DNA from: Zymomonas mobilis subsp. mobilis ATCC 10988 | Lineage (GTDB): Bacteria; Pseudomonadota; Alphaproteobacteria; Sphingomonadales; Sphingomonadaceae | DNA: 32,000 bases | Assembly: GCF_000175255.2 (NCBI RefSeq) | Contig: NC_017180.1 | Coordinates: forward strand, 1 to 32,000 | Direction: 5' to 3' | Part shown: one piece after another, positions 3-27,276 of the stretch | How the letters are laid out: every line of letters begins with the position of its first letter | Position numbering within the stretch: position 1 is the first letter of the stretch | The notes under the pieces: generated by a model | What the model was told of the DNA's origin: nothing | The model's input: only the letters and a program-made list of their open reading frames with translations | Databases searched by the model: none | Translations under genes and position numbers: made by a program

Positions 3-392
3 ATGTTACAAACAACACATCTAGAGCGTGCGCTTAAACGCCTCAAAGAGGGCTGGGCACGTTATTTGGCTCACTCAGATGATGAGCAACTACGAGACGG
101 GCTAATCCAACGTTTTGAGTTCACTTATGAAATTTCACATAAAATTATTAAGCGATATCTCGAATTAACGTCTCCATCTCCTGATTTGTATGATCGCATG
201 GATTTTGCAGATATCATTCGATCAGCAAGCGAAAAAGGAATCTTGGAAGGTGATTGGAGGCAATGGAAAAAGTACAGAGACAGAAGGAATTTAACAAGTC
301 ATACGTATAACGAAACAAATGCTGAGATTGTTGTTGAGATAATACCTGAATTCATCGAAGAAGTGGAATATTTTTTAAGAAAAATAAAATGA
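3..392 (+). CDS. HEPN-domain protein, HI0074-like nucleotidyltransferase substrate-binding family (putative toxin half of a HEPN/MNT pair)
   Basis: 129-aa ORF. Rx4-6H HEPN signature in 'YRDRRNLTSHTYNE'. Its stop overlaps the start of the MNT ORF (ATGA at 389-392). The ATG at 3 overlaps a TAA at 1-3, so an upstream gene may end at the window edge. Confidence 0.8.
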   Translation: MLQTTHLERALKRLKEGWARYLAHSDDEQLRDGLIQRFEFTYEISHKIIKRYLELTSPSPDLYDRMDFADIIRSASEKGILEGDWRQWKKYRDRRNLTSHTYNETNAEIVVEIIPEFIEEVEYFLRKIK

Positions 393-1972
393 CAATGATG
401 TCCAAAATTGATGTTTCCCCTGAGGATTGGCTTATCATCAAAGCGATACTTCAGGGATTTGTCCCACAAAAGGAAGTGTGGGCGTTCGGTTCACGTGCAC
501 GTTGGACTGCTAAAGATTATTCTGATCTGGATATTGTAATACTTGGTGAGGAGCCTCTCTCCGAAGAATTATTTATGGATTTGGAAAAAAATTTCACAGA
601 ATCGGATTTACCTTGGAAAGTAGATATTGTTGATTGGTACAATTTAGACGACGATTTTAAAAAGATAATAGAAAAAGATTATGTTGTGATACAAAAAAGA
701 AATATCACTAAATGGCCATCCGTTCGCCTTGATTCGATTTTAGTACCAACCGAAAGAATTTCTTATGGTGTCGTTCAACCTGGCAAAGAATCCTTAAATG
801 GCGTACCCATTGTGCGTGTATCAGATGTACGCGATGGAATGATAAAAACAGAAAAGCCTTTAAAAATTTCACAAGAGGTTGAAAATTCGTATTTACGCAC
901 ACGTTTAACAGGAGGCGAACTCTTGCTGAGTATCGTTGGCACTGTTGGCGAAACGGCTATAGTGCCAGAATCTCTTAAAGGATGGAATATCGCACGCGCA
1001 ATTGCACGCATTCCAGTCCGAGAAGATATCGGCGCTCGATGGGTACAATTAGCACTTAAAACAGAAACCATTAAACAACTTATCAACAGCAAACTCAACA
1101 CAACCGTACAACCAACACTTAATCTTCGTGATGTTTTTGAATTACCTGTACCGTTCCCATCTAAAGAAAAACGCTCCAGTATTCTAAACATCCTCGGCTC
1201 CCTCGACGACAAAATCGACCTCAACCGCCGGACAAACGAAACACTGGAAGCCATGGCGCGAGCGTTGTTTCGGGACTGGTTTGTCGACTTTGGGCCGACA
1301 CGGGCAAAAATGGCCGGAGAAGCCCCTTACCTCGCACCAGAACTGTGGGAACTTTTTCCCGACAGGCTGGATGATGAAGGTAAGCCAGAAGGGTGGAAAA
1401 ATAGTCAAATTGGCAAACAATTTGATATTACCATGGGACAGTCCCCTCCTGGATATACATATAACTTAGACGGCAATGGTAAGCCTTTTTATCAAGGAAA
1501 AGCTGACTTCGGAACCATTTTCCCAACTCGTAGAATGTATTGCGCAGCCCCAAATCGTATGGCTTATACGTTTGATAGTTTGGTCAGCGTACGAGCACCT
1601 GTTGGAGAGGTAAATCTTTCAGCTGAAGAGTGTTGTATCGGAAGGGGGTTAGCAGCCATTCGCCATCCGCAGAATCTGCCTTACTATACCTATCTTGTAA
1701 TGAAATCCCTAAGAAAAATATTTTTTTCTTTTGAAGACAACGGCACAGTATTCGGCTCCATCAACAAAAAGCAATTTGAAAAATTGGGTGTTTTAGAAAG
1801 TAAAGTCGAGAATGTTTTTGAGAAACGCGTAGACCCAATTTTTAAAAAAATTATTACCAATGAAGCCGAATCTTATACTCTTGCCCAGCTCCGAGACCTT
1901 CTTCTCCCAAAGCTCATGTCTGGTGAAATAAGTATCCGGAATGCCGAAAAGATGGTGAAAGACGCGGCATGA
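389..1972 (+). CDS. hsdS: Minimal nucleotidyltransferase (MNT) domain fused in frame to the type I R-M specificity subunit HsdS
   Basis: The first ~103 aa carry the MNT signature 'FGSRARWTAKDYSDLDIVILG'. The rest is a two-TRD HsdS with the central conserved region 'LDDKIDLNRRTNETLEAMARALFRDWFVDF' and the C-terminal conserved region 'LAQLRDLLLPKLMSGEI'. No stop codon separates the two parts. An in-frame GTG at 686-688 could also start a stand-alone HsdS. The stop overlaps the hsdR start (ATGA at 1969-1972). Confidence 0.8.
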   Translation: MTMMSKIDVSPEDWLIIKAILQGFVPQKEVWAFGSRARWTAKDYSDLDIVILGEEPLSEELFMDLEKNFTESDLPWKVDIVDWYNLDDDFKKIIEKDYVVIQKRNITKWPSVRLDSILVPTERISYGVVQPGKESLNGVPIVRVSDVRDGMIKTEKPLKISQEVENSYLRTRLTGGELLLSIVGTVGETAIVPESLKGWNIARAIARIPVREDIGARWVQLALKTETIKQLINSKLNTTVQPTLNLRDVFELPVPFPSKEKRSSILNILGSLDDKIDLNRRTNETLEAMARALFRDWFVDFGPTRAKMAGEAPYLAPELWELFPDRLDDEGKPEGWKNSQIGKQFDITMGQSPPGYTYNLDGNGKPFYQGKADFGTIFPTRRMYCAAPNRMAYTFDSLVSVRAPVGEVNLSAEECCIGRGLAAIRHPQNLPYYTYLVMKSLRKIFFSFEDNGTVFGSINKKQFEKLGVLESKVENVFEKRVDPIFKKIITNEAESYTLAQLRDLLLPKLMSGEISIRNAEKMVKDAA

Positions 1973-4900
1973 GCTTTCTGTCTGAAAACGAGATCGAAGA
2001 CTGGGCTTGCGATATTCTGCGCGAATGTGGCTACACCATTGTCTGGGGGCCAGATATTGCCCCCGGTGGCAAAAAGCCGGAACGCGCCTCGTTATCGGAC
2101 GTCATTCTGGAAAAACGCCTGCGTGCGGCCATAGACCGTTTGAACCCACACCTTCTCCAAGCCTCGCGGGATGAAACTCTGCTGGCTCTGATCCGCGAAG
2201 ACACACCCGACCATGTGGACGAAAACCGCCGCCTGCATGATTATCTGGTCAATGGCGTGCCGGTAGACGTGGTGCGCGAAGATGGCACACAGTCTGGCGA
2301 CCGGGTGCGCCTTCTGGATTTTGATACCCCGGAGAATAATGACTTTCTGGTCGTGCGCCAGTTCGTCCTTGAAAAGGACGAGGCCAACCGCAGGCCAGAC
2401 CTCGTTCTGTTCATCAACGGCATGCCGCTTGGAGTGGTGGAACTCAAAAGCCCCAGTTCCGAGAACGCTACGCTGGATTCCGCATGGAACCAGTTCCAAA
2501 CCTATCGCAGCCTTATTTCCTCCCTGTTCCGTTTCAATGAAGCGTTGATGATTTCAGATGGTACACAGGCCCGCGTTGGCTCCCTCACAGCCGGCCGTGA
2601 CCGCTTCATGCCATGGCGCACCATCAACGGCGAAGACCTGATCGCCAAAAACCATGAGGAAATGGAAACCGTATTGCGGGGCGTGTTTACGCCACACTGG
2701 TTTCTGGGTCTGATCCGTGACTTTGTGCTGTTTGGCGAGAAGAACGGGAGTCCTATCAAAATTCTGGCGGGCTATCACCAGTTTCATGCCTGCCTGAAGG
2801 CTGTGACGCAGACTGTGCGGGCCTCTGCCCCGGATGGAAACCGCAAGGTGGGTGTAGTCTGGCACACGCAGGGGTCCGGCAAGAGCCTGCTCATGACGTT
2901 CTATGCAGGCGTGATCGCCCGCCACCCGGAGATGGAAAACCCCACCATCATTGTGCTGACAGACCGCAATGATCTGGACGACCAGCTCTTCGCCACCTTC
3001 TCCGGCGCGCAGGCTTTACTCCGTCAGATACCGGAACAGGCGGACAGCCGAGACGACTTGCAGAAACTCCTCCGGCGTACCTCGGGCGGTGTCATCTTTA
3101 CCACCTTGCAGAAGTTCCAGCCCGAAGACGGCGAAACCAGCCTGCCCATGCTGACCGACCGGCGCAATGTGGTGGTCATGGCAGATGAGGCGCACCGCAG
3201 CCAGTATGGGCTGGAAGCCAAATTCAACCCTAAGACCGGCAAAATGACCTATGGATTTGCCAAATATCTGCGCGACGCCCTTCCTAATGCCTCCTTTATC
3301 GGCTTTACCGGTACACCCATTGAAAATGCCGATGTGAACACACGCGGCATCTTTGGCGACTACATCGACATTTACGACATCGCGCAGGCTGTCGAGGATG
3401 GCGCAACCGTGCCTATTTATTACGAAAGCCGCCTTGTGCGCATCGAACTGGATGAAGACCTCAAGGACGAGCTGGACGATGAACTGGCCGATATTGTCGA
3501 AGGGCTTTGCGAGAACGAGGAACACAAGCTCAGCCAGAAATACTCCCGCGTAGAAGCTTTGGTCGGCTCGGAACCCCGCCTGCGCCGGATTGCCGTAGAC
3601 CTTGTAACCCATTTTGAAAACCGCCTGAATGCCCTTGAAGGAAAAGGCATGATAGTTGGTATGAGCCGGGCCATTTGTGTGGCTCTGTATAACGAGATCA
3701 TCCGCCTGCGCCCCGCATGGCATAGTGATGATGACAATGAAGGAGCCATCAAGGTGGTAATGACCGGCAGTTCATCCGACCCTGCCGGGTTGCAGCCCCA
3801 TATTGGCAAGAAATCCAAAGCCCGACGTGAACTACTGGCAAAGCGCATGAAGGACAACAATGACCCGCTCCGTCTGGTTATTGTGCGCGACATGTGGCTG
3901 ACGGGTTTTGACGTGCCTTCCATGCACACCATGTATGTGGATAAGCCTATGCGCGGGCATGGATTGATGCAGGCCATTGCCCGCGTCAACCGTGTATTCA
4001 AGGGCAAACCCGGTGGTCTGGTGGTAGACTATATCGGCCTCGCTCAGAATCTAAAGGCGGCTCTGGGTGAATATTCAGCCGGAGACCGCGAGCAGGTCGG
4101 CATTGATGAAGGCAAAGCCATCCGCGCCTTGCAGGAACGCTACGAAGTCGTGCGAGCCATGTTCAATCCTGGTCAGGCCGCTGGCTTTGACTACCGCCCA
4201 GCCTTGCAGGACGAGGCAACAGCTAAGACCAAGCTCTCCATCATGGCAGGAGCACTTGACCATATTCTGGGTCAGCAGCAACGCGCCATGGTAACAGCCA
4301 AAAGCGCTGAAGAGCGTAAAGCGATCCAGAAACGCTACCCGGATGGAGTCAAGGCGCTTTCAGTCGCCTTTGCTCTGGCCTCTGCCAGTGATGAAGCTGC
4401 CAGACTGCGCGATGAAATCGGGTTTTTCGAGGCAGTCAGGGCGGCACTGGTCAAAAGTGCGAGCAATGGCAGCGATGGACGCAGTGCGCAGGAACTCGAG
4501 CTAGCTATCAAGCAACTGGTCAGCAAGGCGGTCATTTCAACCGATATTATCGATATCATGGAAGTCGCAGGCATTGGAAAACCTGATATTTCCATCCTCT
4601 CGGACACCTTCTTGCAGGAAGTGCGGGAAATGCCTCAGCGCAATCTGGCCATTGATGCGCTCAAAAAGCTGCTGGAAGGCCAGATACGTAGCCGCACACG
4701 CACCAACATCACGGAAGCCGAAGCTTTCTCACAAAGACTGGAACAAGCTGTCGCCCGTTACCATGCCAATGCACTCACATCTGCCCAGATACTGGATGAA
4801 CTTATCCGCATGGCGCATGATATGGTCTCCGCTTGCGACCGGGGCGAGGAACTGGGACTGACACAGGAAGAAATCGCCTTTTATGACGCACTCGCACAGA

Positions 4901-5154
4901 ATGAAAGCGCCAAGGAGGCCATGGGTGACCCTGGTCTACGCGCTATTGCTACAGCTTTAGTAAAGACCATTCGGGTAAATGCTACCGTTGATTGGACCGT
5001 CATGGCCCAAGCCCGCGCCAAAATGCGTACATCTGTCAAGCGTCTACTTCGCCGCTATGGATACCCGCCTGATATGCAAGATGAAGCTGTACAGCACATC
5101 CTGCGACAGGCCGAACAATTTGCACCTGTTTGGGCTGAGCAAGGAGGTATATAA
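1969..5154 (+). CDS. hsdR: Type I restriction endonuclease R subunit
   Basis: 1061-aa ORF. SF2 helicase motifs are present: Walker A 'TQGSGKS', DEAH box 'MADEAHRSQ', 'GFTGTPI' and motif VI 'QAIARVNR'. The N-terminal nuclease region is typical of HsdR. The gene is GC-richer than its flanks and coupled to hsdS. Confidence 0.95.
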   Translation: MSFLSENEIEDWACDILRECGYTIVWGPDIAPGGKKPERASLSDVILEKRLRAAIDRLNPHLLQASRDETLLALIREDTPDHVDENRRLHDYLVNGVPVDVVREDGTQSGDRVRLLDFDTPENNDFLVVRQFVLEKDEANRRPDLVLFINGMPLGVVELKSPSSENATLDSAWNQFQTYRSLISSLFRFNEALMISDGTQARVGSLTAGRDRFMPWRTINGEDLIAKNHEEMETVLRGVFTPHWFLGLIRDFVLFGEKNGSPIKILAGYHQFHACLKAVTQTVRASAPDGNRKVGVVWHTQGSGKSLLMTFYAGVIARHPEMENPTIIVLTDRNDLDDQLFATFSGAQALLRQIPEQADSRDDLQKLLRRTSGGVIFTTLQKFQPEDGETSLPMLTDRRNVVVMADEAHRSQYGLEAKFNPKTGKMTYGFAKYLRDALPNASFIGFTGTPIENADVNTRGIFGDYIDIYDIAQAVEDGATVPIYYESRLVRIELDEDLKDELDDELADIVEGLCENEEHKLSQKYSRVEALVGSEPRLRRIAVDLVTHFENRLNALEGKGMIVGMSRAICVALYNEIIRLRPAWHSDDDNEGAIKVVMTGSSSDPAGLQPHIGKKSKARRELLAKRMKDNNDPLRLVIVRDMWLTGFDVPSMHTMYVDKPMRGHGLMQAIARVNRVFKGKPGGLVVDYIGLAQNLKAALGEYSAGDREQVGIDEGKAIRALQERYEVVRAMFNPGQAAGFDYRPALQDEATAKTKLSIMAGALDHILGQQQRAMVTAKSAEERKAIQKRYPDGVKALSVAFALASASDEAARLRDEIGFFEAVRAALVKSASNGSDGRSAQELELAIKQLVSKAVISTDIIDIMEVAGIGKPDISILSDTFLQEVREMPQRNLAIDALKKLLEGQIRSRTRTNITEAEAFSQRLEQAVARYHANALTSAQILDELIRMAHDMVSACDRGEELGLTQEEIAFYDALAQNESAKEAMGDPGLRAIATALVKTIRVNATVDWTVMAQARAKMRTSVKRLLRRYGYPPDMQDEAVQHILRQAEQFAPVWAEQGGI

Positions 5155-5709: not shown

Positions 5710-6813
5710 TTATTTCGTAACATTTGAGATAATCTTAGAAATAGCTATTTCAAAAAAATTGAGTTCTTGAGGAGTTGCTGTCCCAACCCTGATCCAATTC
5801 AAATAGTTAGGATCGTTAAAAATACGAACATCTACGCCTTGAGACATGAGGGCGTCTTTCATTTTTTGCGCAGGTCGTAAAGTATTAATATAAACAAAGG
5901 TTCCTTCGCTCGGTAAATAAGGTAATCTATTATTTTTACATATTTTGTAAATTATCTTTCGACAAGAATTTAAATAGTTTATTGCACCTTGTAAGTAATT
6001 AGAATCTCTAAAACAGGCTTGTGCAGCAGCGTAACCCGCTTGATTTCGAGAGGTTGTTGTTAAACTGTACAGTTGTTTAATCCGTTGTGGTTGGGCAAGG
6101 CAATATCCAATTCTTAGACCTGCAAGTCCATATACTTTTGAAAATGTACGTGTAACGATTATATCAGCATTTTTATTAAGTAACGGAGCAACTGTTTTTT
6201 GAGAAAAATTTGATAAAAGTTCATAATAAGCTTCATCAATAATGATAGGTATCTTTGTAGATATTTCTATACAGAAACTGAATAATTCAGATATATCAAG
6301 TACAGTCCCTGTTGGATTATTGGGATTGCATAAATAAATAAGTGCGGTTTGTGAGGTTATTGCAGATTTTATAGCTTCTAAGTCGATCTTATGGTTTTTT
6401 AATGGTATAAAATCTACAGTTATACCTCGCCGTTGTGCATATGATAGATGAGTAGAATAAGTTGGACTAGGCGCAATAATTGTTCCATTCCGTCCAATAT
6501 CAGCAGAAAGCAAAGACAAAGTATCAAGAGATCCATTTGATAGTCCGACCTGTTCAACTTTAAGATGCTCATACTGCGCAATTTTTACTCGTAGTTCGGA
6601 CTCGTCTTCTATGTAATAGGGAGCTTTTGATATACAGGCTGCAATAGCTTGGCGCGCATTGAGCGATGGGCCAAATGGATTTTTTGTAACATTTAACCTT
6701 GCCCGTATAGGTCTATCGCAGGATAACTGTGCATTTAATTCCTTATTTCCTAAAAAAGTCGGACCCATAATACTGGCAGCTTGTAAAATCTTACGTCGAT
6801 TAAGATGCACCAT
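5710..6813 (-). CDS. Class I/II PLP-dependent aminotransferase (HisC-like) with an N-terminal twin-arginine-type signal
   Basis: 367-aa ORF. Contains 'LCNPNNPTG' and the PLP-lysine motif 'RTFSKVYGLAGLRIGY'. The N-terminus 'MVHLNRRKILQAASIMGPTFLG' resembles a Tat signal. Confidence 0.8.
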   Translation of the reverse strand: MVHLNRRKILQAASIMGPTFLGNKELNAQLSCDRPIRARLNVTKNPFGPSLNARQAIAACISKAPYYIEDESELRVKIAQYEHLKVEQVGLSNGSLDTLSLLSADIGRNGTIIAPSPTYSTHLSYAQRRGITVDFIPLKNHKIDLEAIKSAITSQTALIYLCNPNNPTGTVLDISELFSFCIEISTKIPIIIDEAYYELLSNFSQKTVAPLLNKNADIIVTRTFSKVYGLAGLRIGYCLAQPQRIKQLYSLTTTSRNQAGYAAAQACFRDSNYLQGAINYLNSCRKIIYKICKNNRLPYLPSEGTFVYINTLRPAQKMKDALMSQGVDVRIFNDPNYLNWIRVGTATPQELNFFEIAISKIISNVTK

Positions 6814-7008
6814 CTGATAAATCCAAAGTAAAATGCGCTATTAGAAAATCTCTTTTATTTTTTATCACAAAAATATTACAATTTTGTAACATTAAAATGT
6901 TAATTAATAATAAAATTATAAAATGTCATATTTTTTTAATAATTTTCATAGATGGAAGCTCAATAAATGAAATGTCTGAGCCTCTTTATTATGATCTGGA
7001 AGAATATT

Positions 7009-9597
7009 ATGGCAATTCGAAAAGCTCTTCTGATTAGTACTTTTTCTACTTTAAGCATTACATCCACTAATGTTGTCTTCGCAGCAGAAAAAAAAGATAT
7101 AAATGACATCCAAAAACAAAAGGCGACAATAGAAAAATCAAATAATAACTCCGATATTTCACCAAATAATAGTTCGGATACTTTAATTGTTACAGGTACC
7201 AGAACGGTTAATAGGCAGGCGCGCCAGAGCGCTTCACCCGTTAGTGTATTGTCTGCAGCTAATTTACAGCGTTCTGGACAACTCAATTTAGCAGATGCCA
7301 TTACTCGAACTTATGCATCGATCAACGTTAGTACGATGGGGAATGATGCGGGGGCTCTTACATCGGCTTTTCGTATGCGAGGATTAAACCCAAATCAGGT
7401 TTTAGTACTTGTAAACGGAAAAAGGCGCCACACGACAGCCAATATTTATGCTGATGCAGGACCCGATTTTGGTGCAACGCCTGTTGATCTTAATATGCTT
7501 CCATCTGCATCAATAGAGCATATTGAAGTGTTAGAAGATGGGGCTGCCGCTCAATATGGCTCGGATGCTATTGCTGGCGTTGTAAATATTATTACAAAAA
7601 AAAGTAATAATGGTTTAAATGCGAGTGTCCAAACGGGTGCAAATGCTTATAATGGGGATGGTTGGCAATATCAGGCTAATATTGATGGTGGTCTTTCTTT
7701 AGGAAAAAATGGGTATTTGCATTTGAGTGCCCAGTCGTACCGTGCAAATCATATGGTGCCCTATACGGAAGATCATCGTTTGTTAGGATATAAGCCCGCA
7801 GGTGCGGGAACTTCTTTATATACCGATTCTGTTTCAGTCCCTCTTAATTCTAACAAGGTTATGAGTACCCCGAAAGAAACGCGCGAAAATTTGAGTATTG
7901 ATTTTGGCAAACCGCTTTCCGATGGAGTGGAAGGGTACGGTTTAATAACCTATGCTCATCGTCAGTCAGAGTCCTACCAAAATTATCGGACGCCTGATAC
8001 CGTACCCACTATCTATCCTTATGGTTTCTCGCCTCTCGAGACGATTAAAGAAAATGATTACGCAGCGACATTGGGTCTAAAAGGAGATAACCTTTTTGGG
8101 TTTTCTTGGGACGCTAGCTCAACCTATGGGGCAGATGAGGATGATATCGGTAATAAAAATAGTATAAATAATGGTATGCTCAGTACTAAATGTATTGACC
8201 GTCGTCAAAATCCTCAAACAACTAGCGCCTATGCTTCCAGTCAAGGGTGCGGTTGGTCACCAACAAAGACACGCGCCGAATCCTATCGGATGGCTCAGTG
8301 GACTAATAACTTAGATATTAGACGAAGTATAAATACCGGATTCGCTACTTCAACAATATTAGTCTTTGGTGCAGAACACAGACTTGAAACCTATGAAATT
8401 AAGGCTGGTGATCCGCCTTCTTATGAAGCCGGTGGTATGGCAGGATATGTTGGTCTTAGTCCGCAAAATGCAGGACATTGGAATAGAAACATTTTTGCGG
8501 GATATGTGGATGCTGATTTCCATCCTTTAAAAAAATGGAATATCGACTTTGCTGGTAGATTTGAACATTATTCAGATGTTGGAAATACTTTAAATGGAAA
8601 ATTTTCTACCCGCTATGATATTTCGCACCATATTGCCGTTCGTGGTACCGTTAGTAACGGTTTCCGTGCACCGACACTAGCAGAACAGCATTTTAGCTCT
8701 ATTAATGTTGGAGCAACAACGGTCTCTGGATTGCTGCCCGTAAGTTCGAACGCTGCTCATATTCTTGGAGCCTCTCCTCTTAAACCGGAAAGATCTTTTA
8801 ATGCCAGTGGTGGTATTGTTTTAGAGCCTATAAAGGGCTTTCATATAGAAGCCGATGCTTATCAAATTAATATTCGTAATAGAATTATCGCTGGAGGATC
8901 AACAAATGGCAGTAATGCAATTTCGGCATTGGATAGCTTGGGTTTTGTAATCCCATCCGGCTTAGATCCTAATGCTGTTAGTACTTATTATTTTGCAAAT
9001 GGAGCCAATACTCGAACCAGAGGGTTAGATGTAAAAGCGGACTATTTGGTTCATTTGCATGAACTCGGTATTTTATCACTCTCTGCTTCCTTAGACATTA
9101 ACAAAACCATTTTAACGCATGTTGCATCTACAACGGCGAATGGTGTTTCCGTTCCATTACTTAATGCTGCCACTGCTGGTTATATTACGAGTTCTTATCC
9201 TCGTAGTAAGTTAATCCTGAATGCTTTTTGGGAAGTCGGTAAATGGAATATAAATTTGCGTGAAACACGATATGGCTCCACAACTAATATGCTGGTTTAT
9301 CAAGATTGGACACCTAGTTCTGCAATATGTGAGGCAAATGGTAAAGCTTTGCGCTACTCAAATACTTGTTTTGCTAAATTTAAAAATACACCACGCTGGA
9401 TGACTGATATTGAAGTAGGATATAATATAAATTCAAAGATACATCTTGCTGTTGGTGCCAATAATATTTTTAATGTCCGACCTCGTCGTGTAAATCAAAT
9501 AAATAATAATTATGGTGCCCGTATTTATGACGCCAATTCTGCACAAGTACCAATGACTGGTGCTTTCTATTACGGGCGTGTTTCTGTAAAAATTTAA
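7009..9597 (+). CDS. TonB-dependent outer-membrane receptor
   Basis: Signal peptide 'MAIRKALLISTFSTLSITSTNVVFA'. Plug motifs 'DTLIVTGTR', 'VLVNGKR' and 'IEHIEVLEDGAAAQYGSDAIAGVVNIITKK', followed by a long beta-barrel. The longest ORF starts at 6967, but the ATG at 7009 gives a proper signal peptide. The C-terminus ends in '...SVKI' rather than the usual aromatic residue. Confidence 0.9.
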   Translation: MAIRKALLISTFSTLSITSTNVVFAAEKKDINDIQKQKATIEKSNNNSDISPNNSSDTLIVTGTRTVNRQARQSASPVSVLSAANLQRSGQLNLADAITRTYASINVSTMGNDAGALTSAFRMRGLNPNQVLVLVNGKRRHTTANIYADAGPDFGATPVDLNMLPSASIEHIEVLEDGAAAQYGSDAIAGVVNIITKKSNNGLNASVQTGANAYNGDGWQYQANIDGGLSLGKNGYLHLSAQSYRANHMVPYTEDHRLLGYKPAGAGTSLYTDSVSVPLNSNKVMSTPKETRENLSIDFGKPLSDGVEGYGLITYAHRQSESYQNYRTPDTVPTIYPYGFSPLETIKENDYAATLGLKGDNLFGFSWDASSTYGADEDDIGNKNSINNGMLSTKCIDRRQNPQTTSAYASSQGCGWSPTKTRAESYRMAQWTNNLDIRRSINTGFATSTILVFGAEHRLETYEIKAGDPPSYEAGGMAGYVGLSPQNAGHWNRNIFAGYVDADFHPLKKWNIDFAGRFEHYSDVGNTLNGKFSTRYDISHHIAVRGTVSNGFRAPTLAEQHFSSINVGATTVSGLLPVSSNAAHILGASPLKPERSFNASGGIVLEPIKGFHIEADAYQINIRNRIIAGGSTNGSNAISALDSLGFVIPSGLDPNAVSTYYFANGANTRTRGLDVKADYLVHLHELGILSLSASLDINKTILTHVASTTANGVSVPLLNAATAGYITSSYPRSKLILNAFWEVGKWNINLRETRYGSTTNMLVYQDWTPSSAICEANGKALRYSNTCFAKFKNTPRWMTDIEVGYNINSKIHLAVGANNIFNVRPRRVNQINNNYGARIYDANSAQVPMTGAFYYGRVSVKI

Positions 9598-13114: not shown

Positions 13115-14713
13115 ATGCATCTACTAAGCGCTCATATTACTAATTTTCGCCGCTTTGCTGATTTAACTATCAAAGAAATACCTAAAACAGCAAAACTAGT
13201 AGTGTTGGCTGGACCGAATGGATCTGGTAAATCATCATTTTTTGATGCCCTTCTTCTTCGATATCGTCTTGACAGTCATTTCGGTTGGAATGGCGATCAA
13301 AAATATTATAATCGACAACACAGTGAGACAGCTACTTGGGATAAGAGAATTACTGTTGAAACAGACTGTGGTAATACTTTGAATCGAGGTAACGTTTATG
13401 TTCGTACAGCCTATCGAAACGATCCAGATTTTCAAACAACGGGTCTAACACGCCAAGAGAATATCCTCGACAACCCTCCTCTTCATCGTATGATTGAAGC
13501 TGATGCTACTGTCAGTGTGAACTATCAGCGCTTGGCATCACAAGCAATGGAAGATGTTTTTCAAAAAGAATCTCCTACCACAACTATAGGACAATTTCGT
13601 GAAAACTTAATAGGTAAGATCGGAGTATCATTGAATCGATTGTTCTTAGATCTGAATCTAATTAGTGTAGGTAATCCAGTAGATCATGGTACCTTTGAAT
13701 TTAGCAAGGGGATGTCAAAGAAATTTGAATACAAAAACCTATCTGCTGGTGAAAAGGCTGCTTTTGATCTTATTCTTGACCTTGTCGTTAAGCGAGATAG
13801 CTATAATAACGCAATATACTGTATCGATGAGCCTGAAACACATATGAATACACGGCTGCAGGCTGCTCTTCTCAAAGAACTTGTTGAATTAATTCCAGAT
13901 AACTCCCAGCTCTGGATCGCATCACACTCAATAGGAATGATGCGAAAAGCACGTGAAATGTATGATGCTGATCCTTCATCTGTAGCGTTTATCGACTTCA
14001 GTGGAGTTGATTTAGACGAACCTGTCGTGCTGACACCAACAAAGCCAACACGCGCATTCTGGAGGAATGTTATGCATGTTGCGCTTGATGACCTAGCCGA
14101 ACTAATCGCACCTAAGCAGGTCATCATTTGCGAAGGTAATCCATCTGGAAATGTGCCGCGAAAAAATTCAAATCATGATGCTGAAATTTATGGAGCAATT
14201 TTTGCTGAAGAATTTCCTGATGCTACTTTTATTTCAGCCGGTAATTCGAAAGAGGTGCAGAATGATTTTATAGGTTTGGCCGCTGTATTACCGAAACTGG
14301 CTACGGGTATAGAAATTATCCGTCTTATAGATCGTGATGATTATACAATTGAAGATATTAACGATTTTAAAAATAAAGGTATCCAAGTATTAAGCCAACG
14401 CCATATTGAATCCTACCTTTATGATGACGAAGTGCTGATTGCTTTGTGTAACTCCGTTGAAAAACCTGAAAAGAGTGCTGATCTCATAGATGAAAAGAGA
14501 AAAATTATCGACGAGATAGTAAAAAATGGAGCTCTAAGTGATGATATAAAAAAAGCTGCCGGAAAATTATCTGTCAAGGCCAAGAAAATATTGGAGCTAA
14601 GACAAGCTGGGAATGACACCCCTGGCTTCGAGCGTAATACACTTTCAAAAATCATTAAACCAAATATGGGCATCTATAAAAAATTAAGATTTGATATATT
14701 TGGCTTGAGATGA
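13115..14713 (+). CDS. ABC-type ATPase fused to a Toprim/DUF4435-like domain (OLD-family or merged-PARIS-like defence candidate)
   Basis: Walker A 'GPNGSGKS', ABC signature 'LSAGEK', Walker B 'IYCIDEPETHM' and H-loop 'WIASHS'. A C-terminal region follows with 'VIICEGNPSG' (Toprim Glu) and 'IRLIDRDD' (DxD). No partner helicase or nuclease gene is adjacent. Confidence 0.7.
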   Translation: MHLLSAHITNFRRFADLTIKEIPKTAKLVVLAGPNGSGKSSFFDALLLRYRLDSHFGWNGDQKYYNRQHSETATWDKRITVETDCGNTLNRGNVYVRTAYRNDPDFQTTGLTRQENILDNPPLHRMIEADATVSVNYQRLASQAMEDVFQKESPTTTIGQFRENLIGKIGVSLNRLFLDLNLISVGNPVDHGTFEFSKGMSKKFEYKNLSAGEKAAFDLILDLVVKRDSYNNAIYCIDEPETHMNTRLQAALLKELVELIPDNSQLWIASHSIGMMRKAREMYDADPSSVAFIDFSGVDLDEPVVLTPTKPTRAFWRNVMHVALDDLAELIAPKQVIICEGNPSGNVPRKNSNHDAEIYGAIFAEEFPDATFISAGNSKEVQNDFIGLAAVLPKLATGIEIIRLIDRDDYTIEDINDFKNKGIQVLSQRHIESYLYDDEVLIALCNSVEKPEKSADLIDEKRKIIDEIVKNGALSDDIKKAAGKLSVKAKKILELRQAGNDTPGFERNTLSKIIKPNMGIYKKLRFDIFGLR

Positions 14714-19645: not shown

Positions 19646-20320
19646 TTAAATTGGCTTATTCTCTAATAACGTTTCGACATGGCTTTTGCTGTTATCCAGC
19701 ATCCAATCTGCTGTTGGTCTTGAGCGATATTCAATCAAACGAACAATTCTATCCCAATCAGCTTGCAAATCTCTTTCAAATATCGGCTCGTGATGGGCTA
19801 TGCGATTACGCAGCATCCGAATTTCACCCAGATCACTATAAAGGCTCTGTCTATGGTCTTTAATATCTTGCGTCTGGTCAAGGTTGGGGAATACTTTTAA
19901 CAAATATGAACGCCAAAGCCTTTTATCATGGCGCTTCGTGAACATAGCCTGCCAGAATACAAAGTTCAGTTCTGGTATTACCTTTCCAGTCGTTTCCGCC
20001 TTCCAACAAGCTTTGTTTACATCCGTCAATGCGCTGTATCCTGATTTTATAACCGGAAGGCTTCGTAGGAAGCCTTCTGACCATGGCCAGCGATCTCCAT
20101 AAGTATAGGATAGCGCTTCTGCTACAGCATTTCGGATAGCTATTTCTGTTATATGAAGGGGCGCTAGCAATGCGCCGGATAGCTGTGCATTCCATACATA
20201 TAAATCCAAGGCGACAAGATCATCTTTTCCTAATGCCCTAACCTTGTCTTCATATCTTCCAAGTCGGGGAGCCGATAAGGTCTTTCTAATAGAGATAATC
20301 TTATCTTGAATTGACAGCAT
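19646..20320 (-). CDS. Abi_2-family (AbiD/AbiF-like) abortive infection protein
   Basis: 'LSAPRLGRYE', 'LDLYVWNAQLSGALLAPLHITEIAIRNAV' and 'MLRNRIAHHEPIF' are the characteristic Abi_2 motifs. Confidence 0.8.
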   Translation of the reverse strand: MLSIQDKIISIRKTLSAPRLGRYEDKVRALGKDDLVALDLYVWNAQLSGALLAPLHITEIAIRNAVAEALSYTYGDRWPWSEGFLRSLPVIKSGYSALTDVNKACWKAETTGKVIPELNFVFWQAMFTKRHDKRLWRSYLLKVFPNLDQTQDIKDHRQSLYSDLGEIRMLRNRIAHHEPIFERDLQADWDRIVRLIEYRSRPTADWMLDNSKSHVETLLENKPI

Positions 20321-20607: not shown

Positions 20608-20889
20608 TTAAGCTGCGACTGCTTCAGCAACCATCTCGGGATGAAGACTAATCACCTTCACGTAAGCAATAGCGTAATCCGGTGCCGTGCTGCGGGTCTG
20701 TTCCCAGTCACGCAACGTGCCTACAGATATTTTGAAGCGTGAAGCAAAATCTTTCTGAGATAATCCCAAAGCCGAGCGCGCTTTTCTGATTAACCGAGCG
20801 CGCTGCCCCCGTTCCATGGCTTCCTTGGTTACGTTGAAATCTTCCTCATCCGCAGGGTCAGCAGGAAGAATGATACGCTCTTTCTTCAC
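20608..20889 (-). CDS. XRE/HTH-type antitoxin (partner of the decayed DUF497/BrnT toxin)
   Basis: 93 aa with a GTG start. 'ARSALGLSQKDFASRFKISVGTLRDWEQTRSTAPDYAIAYVKVI' is an HTH. Lies directly downstream of the BrnT-like remnant. Confidence 0.75.
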   Translation of the reverse strand: MKKERIILPADPADEEDFNVTKEAMERGQRARLIRKARSALGLSQKDFASRFKISVGTLRDWEQTRSTAPDYAIAYVKVISLHPEMVAEAVAA

Positions 20890-21599: not shown

Positions 21600-22017
21600 C
21601 AAAGTAAGCGCGACTTTTTCAACACTATCGAAGGAAAGCGGAACGTCTGATTTCAGATTACAGAAAAAAGGAAGTGGACATGAACAGAAGCGACTGACAG
21701 GGGGAATCAATTAAAAGCTTTAGTCAACATTCAGACGACGTCCATAGACAACATCTAAAATTCACCCGCGACACCGATCCACGGCATCTAGAGCATATAT
21801 ATTATGCCAGTTTATACCCTACTGCAGTGAAGGAATTGACACATTCGTCAAAAATAACAACATTCGAGACTGATAATGTCAATAAGTTTTTGCGTAATCC
21901 GCCATTATTTATAGTACAGTGAGATATATTTAGCTCATAAATATTTATTTTTAGCTTGAATTAGAAAAATATATTATTGTACAATCAAATGTATTTTTAT
22001 AAAATTTTATCTATAAA

Positions 22018-22974
22018 TTATCTATTCAAACGCGCTGTCAGAATTGCCTTTGTCCGCTCGTCACAGAAGGCCGCCTCGATGGCGTTTTTGTTAATTATAT
22101 AGTCCGAGAGGCATGACCCAACGGTCCGCGCAAGGGCGTATTCTTGCAACAGGTCGGTATCAAAGAAACTCGGATCATCAGTGCCAAGCGTGATGACACA
22201 TCCGGAATTGGCCAGCCTGCCGATCGGATGAGCGGTTATTGTTGGGTAAAGACCTAGGGCCACGTTACTACTAAGGCAGACCTCGAGTGGAATTCGGGAC
22301 GATGCAATCTGCCGCATCACATTTGGCGATTCGACTGCACGTACTCCATGCCCAACCCTGTCAAGGTTGAGGATTTCAATTGCCTCAATAACCGTCTCGG
22401 CAGGACAGTGCTCGCCGGCGTGTGCTGTTGCCTTGAGGCCTTCCCCTCGAGCAATACTGAATGCCTCGGCAAAATCGCCAACGGAATACTGATTTTCGTC
22501 ACCGGTCAGACCAAAACCGACCAATATGTTCGACCGTATGGATGTCGCCATGCGAGCAGCCTCTATGGCGGCTAGTGGGCCGAGGTGACGGACTGCAGTG
22601 GCGATGAGACAGGAATGCACACCCCACTCCTGACGTGCCCGATCAGCAGCGGCCTGTAGTGCTCTCAGTTGATCAAAAAACGGAACGCCCGTGCGGGCGA
22701 GATCGGGAGGTGACAGCATGAATTCCACATAAGAACCACCCAACAAAGAGCATCGCTGGAGATATGATGTGGCGACTTGCTCAAGGTCGTTCGCAGACTT
22801 CACTACGGATGTGATCAGATCGTAGGATTTCAAAAAGGAAGGGAAATCATGCCACCCGTAGCGCGCAGCCGAGATTACAGAGGAGGGGATTGAAACGTTA
22901 TTGCGTTTAGCAAGTAAAATTACTGTATCGCGGAGCAAGGTCCCCCGAAGGTGAACATGAAGGTCGACTAACAT
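22018..22974 (-). CDS. Adenosine/adenine deaminase-family metallohydrolase
   Basis: 318 aa. All signature motifs are present: 'VDLHVHLRG' (HxH), 'ATAHAGEH', 'RVGHGV' and 'ITLGTDDPSFF'. GC-richer than the flanks. Confidence 0.85.
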   Translation of the reverse strand: MLVDLHVHLRGTLLRDTVILLAKRNNVSIPSSVISAARYGWHDFPSFLKSYDLITSVVKSANDLEQVATSYLQRCSLLGGSYVEFMLSPPDLARTGVPFFDQLRALQAAADRARQEWGVHSCLIATAVRHLGPLAAIEAARMATSIRSNILVGFGLTGDENQYSVGDFAEAFSIARGEGLKATAHAGEHCPAETVIEAIEILNLDRVGHGVRAVESPNVMRQIASSRIPLEVCLSSNVALGLYPTITAHPIGRLANSGCVITLGTDDPSFFDTDLLQEYALARTVGSCLSDYIINKNAIEAAFCDERTKAILTARLNR

Positions 22975-23017
22975 AGCGACCGTTGATACAGATTAGACTA
23001 GGAGCGTGGAAGTCTAA

Positions 23018-23575
23018 ATGCGTATTAGATTCTTATCAAAGAACAAACATAAGATCGCGGAAGCTGAGAAAATACTCAATCCTCTGCATGTCGAGGTTGT
23101 TCCTATCACGGTACAGATCGATGAACTTCAGACCATTGATGTCAAGGCGATCATCCGAAACAAAGTGCTACGCGCTTTCGATAGAATTGGCCATCGACTA
23201 ATTGTGGAACAGACTTGTCTCTACTTGGACGCCCTGAACGGCTTTCCTGGGGGCCTTACTCAGCCGTTTTGGGATACACTTGAAGCAGAGCGCTTCTGCG
23301 AGTTGTTCGGTCGTGGGGAAATGCGAGGCGTTACCGCGAAAACGTGGATCGGCTACTGCGACGGTCGGCAAATTTACAAATTCGAAGGGGAGATCCGCGG
23401 CAGCGTCTCTTCTGAACCGCGTGGCGATCGTGCCTTCCAATGGGACTGCGTTTTCATTCCAGATGGTCATCAGGAAACATTTGCTCAGATGGGCGAGAGG
23501 AAAAACGAGATATCGATGCGGCGCAGCGCGCTGAATGCCTTTGCGCAACACTTGCGGGAGGCAGCCGATGCTTGA
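23018..23575 (+). CDS. HAM1/ITPA-family non-canonical purine NTP pyrophosphatase-like protein
   Basis: 'FLSKNKHKIAEAE', 'IVEQTCLYLDALNGFPGG' and 'FQWDCVFIPDG...KNEISMRRSA' parallel the ITPA motifs 'VEDTCL..AL.G.PG', 'FGWDP.F.P.G' and 'SHR'. The conserved positions here read VEQT and SMR. Confidence 0.8.
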   Translation: MRIRFLSKNKHKIAEAEKILNPLHVEVVPITVQIDELQTIDVKAIIRNKVLRAFDRIGHRLIVEQTCLYLDALNGFPGGLTQPFWDTLEAERFCELFGRGEMRGVTAKTWIGYCDGRQIYKFEGEIRGSVSSEPRGDRAFQWDCVFIPDGHQETFAQMGERKNEISMRRSALNAFAQHLREAADA

Positions 23576-24374
23576 CTTCCTTGCGCGCGAGATCCGCGAA
23601 CATAGGGTGATTCTTTTCGTAGGAGCAGGCCTCTCGCGACCGTTAGGGCTTCCGTCGTGGGGAAAACTCATCAAGCACATGGCACAAGAGCTTGGCTTCG
23701 ACCGCGACGTCCTTGTCGGGCCAAGTGCTGATTATCTGCAGGTCGCAGAGTTTTACAAACTGAAGAAGGGAAACATCGGCGAATTGCGAAGTTGGATGGA
23801 CAGGAGTTGGAATGTGTCCGACGATAAGCTACTGGCATCCAAAGTGCACCAGCAGATTGTCGATCTCAAATTTCCCCTCGTTTACACAACGAATTACGAT
23901 AACAATCTTGAGCGAGCATTTGAGCTGCACGGAGTACAGGTCTCGAAAATTGCGTCAGTCATAGACATCGCCAATGCGAAGCCAGGCCATACTCACGTCA
24001 TTAAGTTCCATGGAGACTTCGCCGACGACAACTCGCTGGTCCTTACCGAGACGGACTACTTCGAGAGGCTAGAATTAAAATCGCCGCTCGACCTGAAGCT
24101 GCGGTCGGATGTTCTGGGACGCACGATCTTGTTTGTTGGGTACAGCCTGAAGGACCTAAATCTGCGTCTCCTTTTCTACAAACTGAAGCGAACCTGGGAT
24201 GGCACTCCCTATGCAAAGAAGCGTCCGCGGTCGTTTATTTTCCTTATCCGGCCCGACGTCGTTCAGGAGACGGTAATGGAAAGCCGCGGGGTCTCCCCCA
24301 TCGTTTCAGATTCTCTTGATCCCGAAGATGCGTTGCCGGCGTTCTTCGAGCGTTTACTAGAATGGACCGGATAG
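23568..24374 (+). CDS. SIR2_2-like (defence-type sirtuin) domain protein
   Basis: 'ILFVGAGLSRPLGLPSW', 'VYTTNYDNNLE', 'IKFHGDF' and 'ILFVGYSLKDLNLR' are present. The preferred ATG at 23568 overlaps the HAM1-like stop by 8 nt. The longest ORF starts at 23535. Confidence 0.8.
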   Translation: MLDFLAREIREHRVILFVGAGLSRPLGLPSWGKLIKHMAQELGFDRDVLVGPSADYLQVAEFYKLKKGNIGELRSWMDRSWNVSDDKLLASKVHQQIVDLKFPLVYTTNYDNNLERAFELHGVQVSKIASVIDIANAKPGHTHVIKFHGDFADDNSLVLTETDYFERLELKSPLDLKLRSDVLGRTILFVGYSLKDLNLRLLFYKLKRTWDGTPYAKKRPRSFIFLIRPDVVQETVMESRGVSPIVSDSLDPEDALPAFFERLLEWTG

Positions 24375-24513
24375 ACGGCAGGTTTAGACAGTTTCTTCAC
24401 GAAAGCTGGCGGTCTGAAAATGTTCTGACTTGACCGTGAGCAGCGCACCGTAACGAGGTCCGGTTTCGAGAAGGTACACGGCCAAATTAAACGGTTGCCA
24501 TGGAGGCGATTGC

Positions 24514-24548
24514 TGCCTGTCTATTTCATGTTTTCGAACAGACAGGCA
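24514..24548. terminator. 9-bp perfect inverted repeat between convergent genes
   Basis: 'tgcctgtct' (24514-24522) pairs with 'agacaggca' (24540-24548) around a 17-nt loop. No T-tract follows. Confidence 0.3.
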
Positions 24549-24639
24549 ACTAAGAGGGCGGATAGGTAGATTTCCAGTTATGAGATCAGAAATTTGACAA
24601 TGGAATTGATGAAAGAAAGTTCGTCTTATGGTCATTATT

Positions 24640-25575
24640 TTAAGAAATTGATTTAGGTAAATCGACCTTCTGCTGATTGGTAATGCCAAATGGGATGTGA
24701 ACTGAGGGTGCTACAGCGCTGGCTGACCGTAGATGACCAGACTGATCATCGAAGAAAATATGCGGCTTAAGTACAGATAAAATTTTTCCTTTTTCGACCC
24801 CACCAAGAAAAAAGGCATCATTTGCCATAACATTCCAGCTCTTTAGAGTGCGGAGTGCTCGCTCGTGATAAGGAGCATTGCGTGCTGTAACTATCGATAT
24901 CCTAAGCCTATTTTTATAATCAGGATGATTACTTTTATGTTCTTCTTCTATTTTTTGTATTTACGACATTTCTACTAGAAATTTTTGGAGAGGTCCTGGG
25001 TTATGTGGCTGCATAACATTTCGCGTTTCGTGTTCATGAAATCTATCTAAACCCGATGATTGCATCACGGCCTCAGATTCATCCCCGGCAAGCACTCCAT
25101 CAAAATCAAATGCGATTCTTAGAGTATTACCTTTTTCGTCGTCTTGAAATGTGGAGTCGAGTACCTGACCGGCTGGATGTCCCAAATGGATTGCGGCGTC
25201 GACGTCTGGCTTATGAGCAGATAAAAATAAAGCAATATTAAAAGCTGGTATGTATTCATATGGGGATTTCCCCTGCATGAAAATTGCGCGGGTGATATCA
25301 AGACCATAATGGGATATCGTATCCATAACCCTCAAACCTGTGTCGGGGTCATTTCTTGATAGCAGCACTACTTCCACAAGCGGGTCTGCCTTATCAGGAC
25401 TGAGATCATTTAATGATAACAGGCGCTTTACAAACGGAAAGGCGATACCCGTTGGAAGAGGGTTATGTAAATTTTCCTCTTGGTACTTTCTATATTTTTC
25501 CTCTCCGTCTTGTCTAAAAATGCTGTCTGAAACACTGAGATCAAAAACCGCGCTGGATGCGACACCAACCACCAA
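24640..25575 (-). pseudogene. 5'-nucleotidase-family gene interrupted by one in-frame TAA
   Basis: ORFs 24961-25575 and 24640-24828 are in the same frame. The segment between them reads through as 'IQKIEEEHKSNHPDYKNRLRISIVTARNAPYHERALRTLKSWNV'. The only break is the TAA at 24961-24963. 'VTARNAPYHERA...FFLGG..K...L....PHIFFDDQ' is typical of this family. Confidence 0.7.
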
Positions 25576-25786: not shown

Positions 25787-26630
25787 GGTTCTGTTGACAA
25801 AGGTTATAATTTAAGATTTTTAGAGACAAATTGAGAACAAGTTTTGTAGGGAAGACAGGATGCGAGGAGATCTGACGGACGCGGAATGGCAGATAATAGA
25901 GGGTCTTCTTCCAAGCGAACGAGGCCGCTGCGCACGTCCCGCAAAAAGTAATCGGTTATTCTCAACGTATGCTTTATGTGCTTCGAACAGGCTGCCCGTG
26001 GCGAGACATGCATGAACGTTATGGGAAATGGAATTCGGTCTATGTTCGGTTTCCTAGATGGGCGGAACAGGGTGTCTGGGATGCTCTTCTTGAAACCCTG
26101 GTTGACCTTGGCCTGACAGATGACTGGCAACATATGATAGATAGTACGATTATTCGCGCCCACAGCCAAACGGCTGGCGCAAAAAGGGGACGGATAAGGA
26201 AGGCTTTGGTCAAAGCCGCGGAGGCTTTACGAGCAAGATCCACGCCCGTTCCGATGGTCAAGGCCGCCCTCTAACTTTCGAACTTACAGGTGGTGAGGTC
26301 CCTGATTATTCTGGCCCTTGTGACAACGCCCCGCTGTTTTCTCGCCGATAAAGGATATTATAGCGATAGGTTATGCGAAAAACTACTCTTTCGAGGCATC
26401 CTTCCTGTTATTCCGCCTTGTTCCAATCGAAAAAAGCCTATTCCTTATAATCTCCAGCACTACAAAGATCGTCATTGTATTGAGCGGATGTTTAATAAGC
26501 TGAAGCAGTTCAGACGTATTGCCAGACGCTATGACAAAACCAGAAAATCTTTCCTCGCCTTTCTTCAGATCGATCCCATGCCCTTTGGTAGAACCAAGCA
26601 AAAATACCTATGATTGTTGACAACAACATC
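25787..26630 (+). mobile_element. IS5-family (IS427-group-like) insertion sequence with a frameshifted transposase
   Basis: The transposase is spread over at least 3 frames: 'MRGDLTDAEWQIIEGLLPSERGR' (from 25860), 'MLYVLRTGCPWRDMHERYGKWNSVYVRF.RWAEQGVWDALL...MIDSTIIRAHSQTAGAKRG' and 'FLADKGYYSD...KDRHCIERMFNKLKQFRRIARRYDKTRKSFLAFL'. Imperfect terminal inverted repeats match at about 14 of 24 positions ('ggttctgttgacaaagg...' and '...gattgttgacaacaacatc'). Size is ~844 bp. Confidence 0.7.
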
Positions 26631-26757
26631 CCCCAATTAACGGACATGGCAGTATTTCTCTCAGTTTCTTAACGATCTAACATGAAAACACGTGAAATAC
26701 GTCGTTTGATTTTATAGATAGCAGACATTATTAAAGTGGATTTTGAGAAGTTTCAGT

Positions 26758-27276
26758 ATGCTCATTGTATTCACAGGATTGCCTGGGTGTGGGAAAACGA
26801 CAATTGCTCAGCTTCTTTCCAAAAAATTGTCGGCTGTGTATATTCGTGTAGATGAGATCGAACAGGCAATTAAATATTCGAATGTTTTACGAGATGACAT
26901 TGGTTCAGTAGGTTACGAAGTGGCGAGCTACCTGGCGCGTTCAAATTTAAATTTGGGAACAATGGTTATCGTGGATTGTGTGAACCCAGTTTTCGAAAGC
27001 CGAGAAATGTTTTATCAAACCGGAAAAGAAACCAATTCCTCAGTCATAGATGTCGAAGTCGTGTGCTCTGATCCTGTAGAACACAGGCGTCGGATTGAAT
27101 TTCGATTGGCGGACATTCCTGGACACAAAGTCCCAGAATGGGATGCCATTTGGGAGATGGAATATACACCATGGTCTAGCCCTCGCCTAATCATCGACAC
27201 CGCGATATGCTCTAGTGATGATGCATTAAGTAAAATTTCTGATTATTTGAGGTTAAAGTCTCGCTCGATTACATAG
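26758..27276 (+). CDS. P-loop kinase/NTPase (AAA_33-like)
   Basis: 'MLIVFTGLPGCGKTT' is a Walker A motif at the extreme N-terminus. About 170 aa, with a 'VIVDCVN' Walker B-like strand. The ORF track starts at a TTG at 26743. Confidence 0.65.
   Translation: MLIVFTGLPGCGKTTIAQLLSKKLSAVYIRVDEIEQAIKYSNVLRDDIGSVGYEVASYLARSNLNLGTMVIVDCVNPVFESREMFYQTGKETNSSVIDVEVVCSDPVEHRRRIEFRLADIPGHKVPEWDAIWEMEYTPWSSPRLIIDTAICSSDDALSKISDYLRLKSRSIT

Follow-up and report, generated by a model that had tools for sequence, protein, structure and literature searches.

Probable Kongming anti-phage genes, of a subtype found mainly in Alphaproteobacteria, on a small plasmid-like replicon of Zymomonas mobilis

Three adjoining genes at positions 22018-24374 of a 32,000-nucleotide stretch from Zymomonas mobilis subsp. 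mobilis ATCC 10988 (contig NC_017180.1, positions 1 to 32,000; this whole stretch is called "the window" below) very probably form a copy of Kongming, an anti-phage system of the abortive-infection type, and fall in a mainly alphaproteobacterial subtype. They travel horizontally as a block of 2.5 kb, here borne by a small plasmid-like replicon. Kongming has a short history. Its components KomA, KomB and KomC were first described in December 2024, with Escherichia coli NCTC13216 as the reference system (Zeng et al., bioRxiv 10.1101/2024.12.20.629578), and the system reached Science in 2025 (doi 10.1126/science.ads6055, as cited in PMC12967843). KomBC structures have been solved (PDB 8zsf-8zsi and 9xvc), and the structure of the effector was dissected by Li et al. 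(Nat Commun 2026; PMC13454610). A preliminary description of the block had presented it as a candidate undescribed system, a view overturned by these publications and deposited structures: Kongming is already described, hence the locus is not a new system. We assign the three genes to Kongming because of the homology of KomB and KomC to the published proteins, the conservation of their ligand-contact and catalytic residues, the coupling of komB to komC, and the linkage of this clade of deaminases to the pair. The block is built as follows:

22018..22974, minus strand: komA-type adenosine-deaminase-family gene (318 aa), divergent from komBC
22975..23017: divergent intergenic region of 43 bp, carrying the komB ribosome-binding site (AGGAG)
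23018..23575, plus strand: komB, HAM1/ITPase-like predicted sensor of deoxyinosine triphosphate (dITP), 185 aa
23568..24374, plus strand: komC, SIR2_2 predicted effector cleaving nicotinamide adenine dinucleotide (NADase), 268 aa
24375..24534, plus strand: 3' tail of the putatively transferred block; positions 24504-24518 resemble a terminator hairpin

A distance of 43 bp separates komA, which starts at 22974, from komB, whose ATG is at 23018. On the other strand the komB TGA lies at 23573-23575 and the komC ATG at 23568, an 8-nt overlap through which the two genes appear to be translationally coupled. Both this overlap and the deaminase with HxH, HAGE and TDDP motifs lying 43 bp from a divergent two-gene operon had been reported in the preliminary description, and the sequence bears them out. 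The komC start has a GGGAGG Shine-Dalgarno sequence 8-13 nt upstream and was also chosen by the gene callers on identical contigs. A longer start at 23535 was dropped, since the Shine-Dalgarno sequence, those gene calls and the KomC alignment all favour 23568, and an antisense open reading frame (ORF) at 23198-23680 (160 aa) was discarded as a by-product of high guanine-cytosine (GC) content over two well-supported genes. The 43-bp gap must contain or abut both promoters, and a 43-46 bp spacing with a GATAA / GTGGAAG core is common to the loci of Sphingobium, Neoroseomonas, Novosphingobium and Bradyrhizobium. A promoter and terminator scan of 21600-24800 gave counts no higher than shuffled sequences (6 vs 3.8; 6 vs 3.6), and the single sigma-70-like match for komA, at 23039-23011, likewise belongs to a count within the shuffle level.

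The three Kongming families PF00962, PF01725 and PF13289 are contiguous at 22018-24374, and the profiles to which the preliminary description had pointed all match over their full length (A_deaminase, 1.8e-69; Ham1p_like, 8.6e-36; SIR2_2, 1.1e-26). The HAM1-like protein aligns without gaps to KomB over residues 1-182 (PDB 8zsg; phmmer 7e-64), and the SIR2 protein aligns to KomC over its full length (PDB 8zsf; phmmer 1.1e-83). BLASTP identity to the E. coli proteins is 54% for KomB, the alignment partner being the published KomB WP_001026099.1, and 49% for KomC. A second two-protein HAM1 and SIR2 complex is found in PDB 9v0g/9v0y/9v12, where the deposited names are 'Xanthosine/inosine triphosphate pyrophosphatase' and 'NAD-dependent protein deacetylase'; it also matches the window proteins (KomB 1.7e-27, KomC 5.5e-38) but is much further from them than E. 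coli KomBC. In the deaminase, the motifs HVH (6-8), HAGE (185), GHG (208) and TDDP (265) are present, and the metal and catalytic residues H6, H8, H185-A-G-E188, H209 and D266-D267 are intact. PADLOC-DB 2.0 (2023) returned no match for KomB and read KomC as ThsA-like over its SIR2 part only; as that library predates Kongming, the miss is no sign of novelty. In E. coli itself, komABC is present in 80 of 5426 complete genomes. One such copy, in E. coli LD27-1 (5971-8296 of the extracted locus), is a canonical komABC within a Rac-like prophage region (recE/recT, ydaU/ydaV); RefSeq names its genes adenosine deaminase, non-canonical purine NTP pyrophosphatase and SIR2 deacylase only, so standard annotation misses Kongming.

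According to the preprint, E. coli KomA deaminates dAMP, dADP more weakly and dATP not at all, and dITP synthesis is then completed by a phage deoxynucleoside monophosphate (dNMP) kinase and by NDK, the nucleoside diphosphate kinase of the host (10.1101/2024.12.20.629578). dITP is the ligand of E. coli KomB, a protein that no longer acts as a pyrophosphatase; remodelling of the KomBC filament follows, KomC hydrolyses NAD+, and defence results at the population level (10.1101/2024.12.20.629578; PMC13454610). By analogy, the window KomA would deaminate a deoxyadenosine nucleotide (dAMP or dADP), and phage dNMP kinase together with host NDP kinase would take the product to dITP. This would bind KomB, whose nucleotide pocket is kept and whose catalytic acid is lost; the KomB-KomC complex would then rearrange, KomC would hydrolyse NAD+, and the infected cell would be stopped. 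The substrate assigned to KomA, the nature of its ligand for KomB and the trigger from the phage are carried over from the E. coli system, and the window copy may be less than fully active. One of the two mechanisms put forward in the preliminary description, an inosine nucleotide sensed by the HAM1-like protein and triggering SIR2, turns out to be the published one (10.1101/2024.12.20.629578; PMC13454610).

KomB residues N9, H11, K12, E15, K49, T66, F140, Q141, W142 and R168 are identical to those of E. coli, and R8 is replaced by Lys. Mutations at R8, K49, T66, F140, Q141 and W142, and at N9/K12/E15, abolish or reduce E. coli defence (10.1101/2024.12.20.629578; PMC13454610); every defence residue validated by mutation is thus represented in the window, R8 as Lys. 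Q141 and W142 account for the preference for dITP over ITP (PMC13454610). Since the residues that select hypoxanthine, the triphosphate and the 2'-deoxyribose are kept, the messenger is probably still dITP. The HAM1 motifs read VEQT at 63 and SMR at 166, as noticed early on, and the ITPase catalytic acid is replaced by Gln65, where E. coli KomB has His65. Because of this replacement the window KomB is predicted to be a catalytically dead HAM1 protein, a binder rather than an enzyme, which the preliminary description had already suspected. It also misses the equivalog cutoffs of housekeeping RdgB (NF011396, 137.7 vs 203; TIGR00042, 102.5 vs 145.35).

These data bear on the other mechanism first proposed for the block, a purine-starvation pipeline in which the deaminase and HAM1 would convert (d)ATP to (d)ITP and (d)IMP, with SIR2 separately depleting NAD+. 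RADAR RdrB and Cad1 deaminate ATP, and the domain composition alone permits such a pipeline. We consider it very improbable all the same: the HAM1 catalytic acid is absent (Gln65 here, His in relatives), the preprint and the structural study report E. coli KomB to be without hydrolytic activity and E. coli KomA not to deaminate dATP (10.1101/2024.12.20.629578; PMC13454610), and the solved structures show KomB and KomC joined in a single complex.

In the effector, the motifs TNYD (at 108) and FHGD (at 147) stand where the preliminary description had seen them. The catalytic residues N109, H148 and D196, equivalent to E. coli N107, H146 and D194, are kept, and the same N/H/D NADase set is present in every full-length KomC relative. 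The protein scores with the NADase effectors ThsA, Dsr and KomC and not with deacetylases, a grouping on which the defence reading of the preliminary description had depended.

How widely is this arrangement kept? One genome per species was searched with the window komB protein, which gave 80 loci. komC follows komB in all 80. A deaminase on the opposite strand accompanies them in 15 of the 80 (39-73% identity to window KomA), from Sphingobium, Novosphingobium, Neoroseomonas, Paracoccus, Rhizobium, Sphingomonas, Roseivivax and others. A co-directional deaminase is found in 16 (23-34% identity), from Pseudomonas, Psychrobacter, Bacillus and others, and the E. coli system belongs to this class. 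For the other 49, mostly Pantoea, tblastn with window KomA found no deaminase. Several of these deaminase-less komBC loci (L021-L086, Pantoea and allies; match at about 6001-7350) lie on large Pantoea plasmids, and KomC of the Pantoea-type loci has Thr at the E. coli R177 position. The divergent trio also occurs in Bradyrhizobium, Pseudosulfitobacter, a Methylobacterium-like contig, a metagenome contig and Acetobacter; in all, 20 or more loci besides the window have the divergent layout, and conservation of the neighbourhood, left open in the preliminary description, is thereby established. A neighbour-joining tree of KomB and KomC places all divergent-komA loci in one clade, and the window copy thus appears to belong to a separate, mainly alphaproteobacterial Kongming clade. 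The preprint describes two major clades of defensive HAM1 and several 'candidate types' defined by operon architecture (10.1101/2024.12.20.629578); in the text of its supplement, as distinct from its architecture figure (Fig. S19), neither Zymomonas nor Sphingobium is named, and neither a Gln variant nor a layout on opposite strands is brought up. Two Pseudosulfitobacter pseudonitzschiae loci (L091 and L092) differ in their komC (2576-3391), called as 234 aa in one and 271 aa in the other, so that the gene may be truncated in one strain; both adjoin ThsB_TIR, TIR_2 and LD_cluster3 genes.

The deaminase takes part in this linkage. The motif H.H[LI/H]RG is found in every full-length protein among the top 120 database homologues of window KomA, and the four homologues sampled (68, 61, 49 and 48% identity) are all divergent to Ham1 and SIR2_2 genes, with transposases, a resolvase, TIR proteins or a SIR2-STAND gene adjoining. 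Because the HLRG motif class and the divergent Ham1/SIR2_2 linkage hold among its homologues, KomA looks like a dedicated partner of komBC and not a housekeeping add; it stands outside the housekeeping synteny that, in the preliminary description, would have spoken against a defence role. That the three genes are chance neighbours, namely a housekeeping add, an rdgB and a cobB-like deacetylase, is an idea to which the names given by PGAP-style profile hidden Markov models (adenosine deaminase, non-canonical purine NTP pyrophosphatase, SIR2 deacylase) could lend some colour. Its probability is nonetheless close to nil, given a layout kept across many genera, a mobile block with a GC content foreign to its flanks, a dead HAM1 site below the RdgB equivalog cutoffs, and a SIR2 protein that scores with ThsA, Dsr and KomC.

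Several observations weigh against the assignment to Kongming and have to be set beside this evidence. Window KomA is just 22-25% identical to E. coli KomA (BLASTP 25%, 74.7 bits), and its nearest solved relative is Pa0148 (3ou8; 142.8 bits, 1e-40); the KomA substrate can therefore not be assumed. The layout is divergent, where the published system is a co-directional three-gene operon. KomB Gln65 departs from the statement in the preprint that defensive HAM1s 'invariably' carry His (10.1101/2024.12.20.629578). In KomC, E56 is replaced by Gln and E233 by Thr, so that the filament interfaces differ from those of E. coli, and Lys171 sits at the position of E. coli E169. Finally, the literature searched shows no experiment on any member of the divergent-komA clade. 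As to Gln65, it is present in nine of the 80 species-level loci, all in the divergent-komA clade, as well as in the close relatives of the window; the remaining six of the 15 divergent-komA loci have His65. It is thus the 'invariably His' statement that needs qualifying. The KomC interface differences, for their part, bear on the activity of the window copy and not on its membership of Kongming.

Lys171 deserves particular attention. The window KomC reads LELKSP where all other relatives examined have [LF]-[ED], and Acetobacter has LEFESP. Across the comparison set (the 80 species-level loci plus about ten more), Lys171 is restricted to the window and the contigs identical to it, with Glu or Asp elsewhere, including in the 92%-identical Acetobacter KomC. 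Defence by the E. coli system was 'significantly impaired' by E169K, since formation of the salt bridge between E169 and R177 is confined to the active state (PMC13454610); the R177 equivalent is kept in the window. The Kongming copy of the window may therefore be attenuated by analogy with that mutant, which is a tentative reading because the interfaces of this clade differ elsewhere and the E. coli mutational result may not transfer. In its stronger form, this is a decaying copy whose effector activation has been disabled by KomC F170L/E171K and which no longer defends in its replicon. We regard this as doubtful, though it carries some weight: Lys171 is unique among about 100 relatives, E169K weakened defence in E. 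coli, where the salt bridge belongs to the active state, and the adjoining 5'-nucleotidase defence candidate has also been inactivated, by a stop codon. Against it, the three ORFs are full length with all their catalytic residues, an identical protein is found on seven contigs from several sequencing runs and is thus stably maintained, and other interface positions differ in the clade as well.

The second matter is the origin of the deaminase. The best PDB match of E. coli KomA is 6n91 (99.7 bits), with just 57.7 bits for 3ou8. Window KomA, at 262.6 bits, passes TIGR01430 (cutoff 216.55), as does its class (262-264), whereas two proxies for the co-directional class, from Pseudomonas gingeri and Bacillus salitolerans, fall below the cutoff (182-194). 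The residue following HxHL also separates the two: the window class has HxHLRG and E. coli KomA has HxHLNG, whereas housekeeping adenosine deaminases (ADAs) have HxHL[D/E]G, with Glu in Pa0148 (3ou8) and Asp in 6n91. This acidic residue touches the 5'-OH of the ribose in the mouse ADA structure, and the fact that neither KomA class has kept it would fit a phosphorylated, that is nucleotide, substrate. A crude neighbour-joining tree, whose housekeeping outgroups number only two, splits the KomA classes into a clade each and puts 3ou8 on the window side, which suggests that a deaminase may have been recruited independently in the window clade. A complete version of this scenario, with the HLRG clade as a separate lineage recruited onto KomBC and both substrate preference and infection cue unlike those of E. 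coli, seems unlikely on present comparisons.

Quite unlikely, too, is the corresponding alternative to the canonical mechanism, in which the KomBC effector is the same and the input is another: an independently recruited KomA clade acting on a different substrate (dATP/dADP directly, a base or a nucleoside), with a trigger other than phage dNMP kinase or a messenger made without phage help. It draws on the two separate clades, each no closer to the other KomA class than to a housekeeping ADA, on the difference in NCBIfam profile, and on the Arg or Asn after HxHL. The structures 3ou8/3pan/3pao (Pa0148), which we take to be an adenine deaminase, point the same way. The KomB ligand pocket, by contrast, is kept, and the absence of the acidic 5'-OH-contact residue from both classes would fit a shared nucleotide substrate. 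Moreover, constitutive dITP production by a deaminase next to an active KomBC would be lethal, an argument made in the published work on the system.

Taken as Kongming, then, the window locus shares with the E. coli system the three Pfam families, the coupled komB-komC pair, the dITP contacts of KomB, the N/H/D set of KomC, the loss of the HAM1 acid and a site in a defence island or mobile element. It differs in having komA on the opposite strand and from another ADA branch, in KomB Gln65, in KomC E56Q, E169K and E233T, and in its host, an alphaproteobacterial plasmid-like replicon. The closest relative of the SIR2 protein outside Kongming is Thoeris ThsA (6lhx, 8bto; PADLOC 3e-32, PDB 1.4e-20), likewise an NADase switched on by a small nucleotide signal. 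However, window KomC (268 aa) matches only positions 9-212 of the 478 in the ThsA profile and is without the SLOG (STALD) sensor; the Kongming sensor is a separate HAM1 protein and its signal is dITP, not gcADPR. Pfam scans, which covered part of the window ORFs, found no TIR domain such as that of Thoeris ThsB. With RADAR and Cad1 the system has in common an enzyme of adenosine-deaminase fold that makes inosine nucleotides in defence. The ADA of the window is, in contrast, small and stand-alone (318 aa), without RdrA ATPase or CARF domain, and in Kongming the inosine nucleotide is a signal and not a toxic end product. PADLOC gave no match to RdrA or RdrB, and its CARF_ADA match spans the ADA part only.

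The block also bears the marks of transfer. Its GC content is 0.50-0.53 across 22001-24500, as against 0.37-0.43 on either flank, and falls past about 24500. Window positions 22015-24534 are 88% identical in DNA to Acetobacter fabarum PDEU01000016.1; the similarity stops at 24534, and the Acetobacter flanks are unrelated (RelB/ParE and an IS5-family transposase). Because this identity breaks off in unrelated flanks, the block appears to be a 2.5-kb transferable unit ending at the terminator-like hairpin, in agreement with the preliminary description, which had taken the GC-rich genes for one acquired unit. The 2.5-kb block is not bordered by repeats, either direct or inverted; only short, probably chance matches were seen there. 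An identical block is present on NCBI contig VFOI01000003.1 (32,458 bp) and on six read-assembled contigs. From its position 1 to the window end, VFOI01000003.1 differs from the window by two T-run lengths only, and a second identical match carries on at window position 1; this wrap-around indicates that the window is nearly the whole of a small circular replicon. The two differences, over 13.7 kb, are at 24951 and 29586 (T6 in the window vs T5), the first inside the broken 5'-nucleotidase gene; both could be sequencing error or real slippage. The backbone is 85-88% identical to Z. mobilis plasmids, and to Zymomonas plasmids only, and the type I restriction-modification (R-M) genes share 87-90% identity with Acetobacter plasmids. 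Among the PLSDB plasmids megablast found no match for the block, and the replicon is outside that collection.

The surroundings answer to what the preliminary description had seen in them, defence and toxin-antitoxin genes with an insertion sequence (IS) close by: type I R-M genes (hsdS, hsdR), an AriAB-like ATPase, an Abi_2/PD-T4-5-like gene and IS5-family fragments. The neighbouring features of the window are:

3-392, plus strand: HepT-like/NTase_sub_bind ORF, overlapping the next ORF by 4 nt
389-1972, plus strand: ORF fusing an MNT-type nucleotidyltransferase (NTP_transf_2/Polbeta, residues 17-105) and HsdS (Methylase_S)
1969-5154: hsdR, following the HsdS fusion ORF
13115-14713, plus strand: AAA_15/AAA_21 ATPase, 532 aa; best PADLOC match fused AriAB (PARIS-like), 1.8e-29
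19646-20320, minus strand: Abi_2/HEPN-like protein; Pfam only 5.7e-6, PADLOC PD-T4-5 1.8e-17
20608-20889, minus strand: HTH_3/MqsA-like small protein, adjoining the Abi_2/HEPN-like gene
24640-25575, minus strand: PF06189 5'-nucleotidase, convergent to komC and of lower GC; PADLOC PDC-S08 5.5e-90
25860-26613, plus strand: IS5-family transposase fragments (DUF4096, then DDE_Tnp_1_2) in several short ORFs; the IS is probably degenerate
26743-27276: AAA_33 kinase-like ORF, after the IS5-family fragments

The region 3-1972 looks like a HepT-MNT toxin-antitoxin pair within an R-M operon, in which the antitoxin seems to be joined to HsdS. On an identical contig (L001) hsdM comes immediately upstream, which would place it at the window's 3' end. 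The ATPase at 13115-14713 is a second probable defence gene on the replicon. The 5'-nucleotidase gene next to komC is broken by one in-frame TAA (24958-24960) and is otherwise a single open frame; four other loci (L064, L067, L068 and L084) have relatives of it no more than 2 kb from komABC. The preprint names 5'-nucleotidases among the KomBC-associated genes and reports that phage dNMP 5'-monophosphatases inhibit Kongming (10.1101/2024.12.20.629578). A functional link between the 5'-nucleotidase and Kongming, or a conflict, is possible.

This locus documents a coherent, widespread and mainly alphaproteobacterial clade of Kongming whose divergent deaminase is of another lineage, and it indicates that defensive HAM1 proteins can have a residue other than His at the dead site. 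If the deaminase was indeed recruited separately, Kongming would be a modular family, with its input enzyme exchanged one or more times and its dITP sensor retained. A natural KomC variant with Lys at the E169 position could in turn be used to test the published model of activation. Lastly, Kongming appears to move between plasmids of fermentation-associated bacteria, Zymomonas-like and Acetobacter, which may be of practical interest for the phage resistance of industrial strains.

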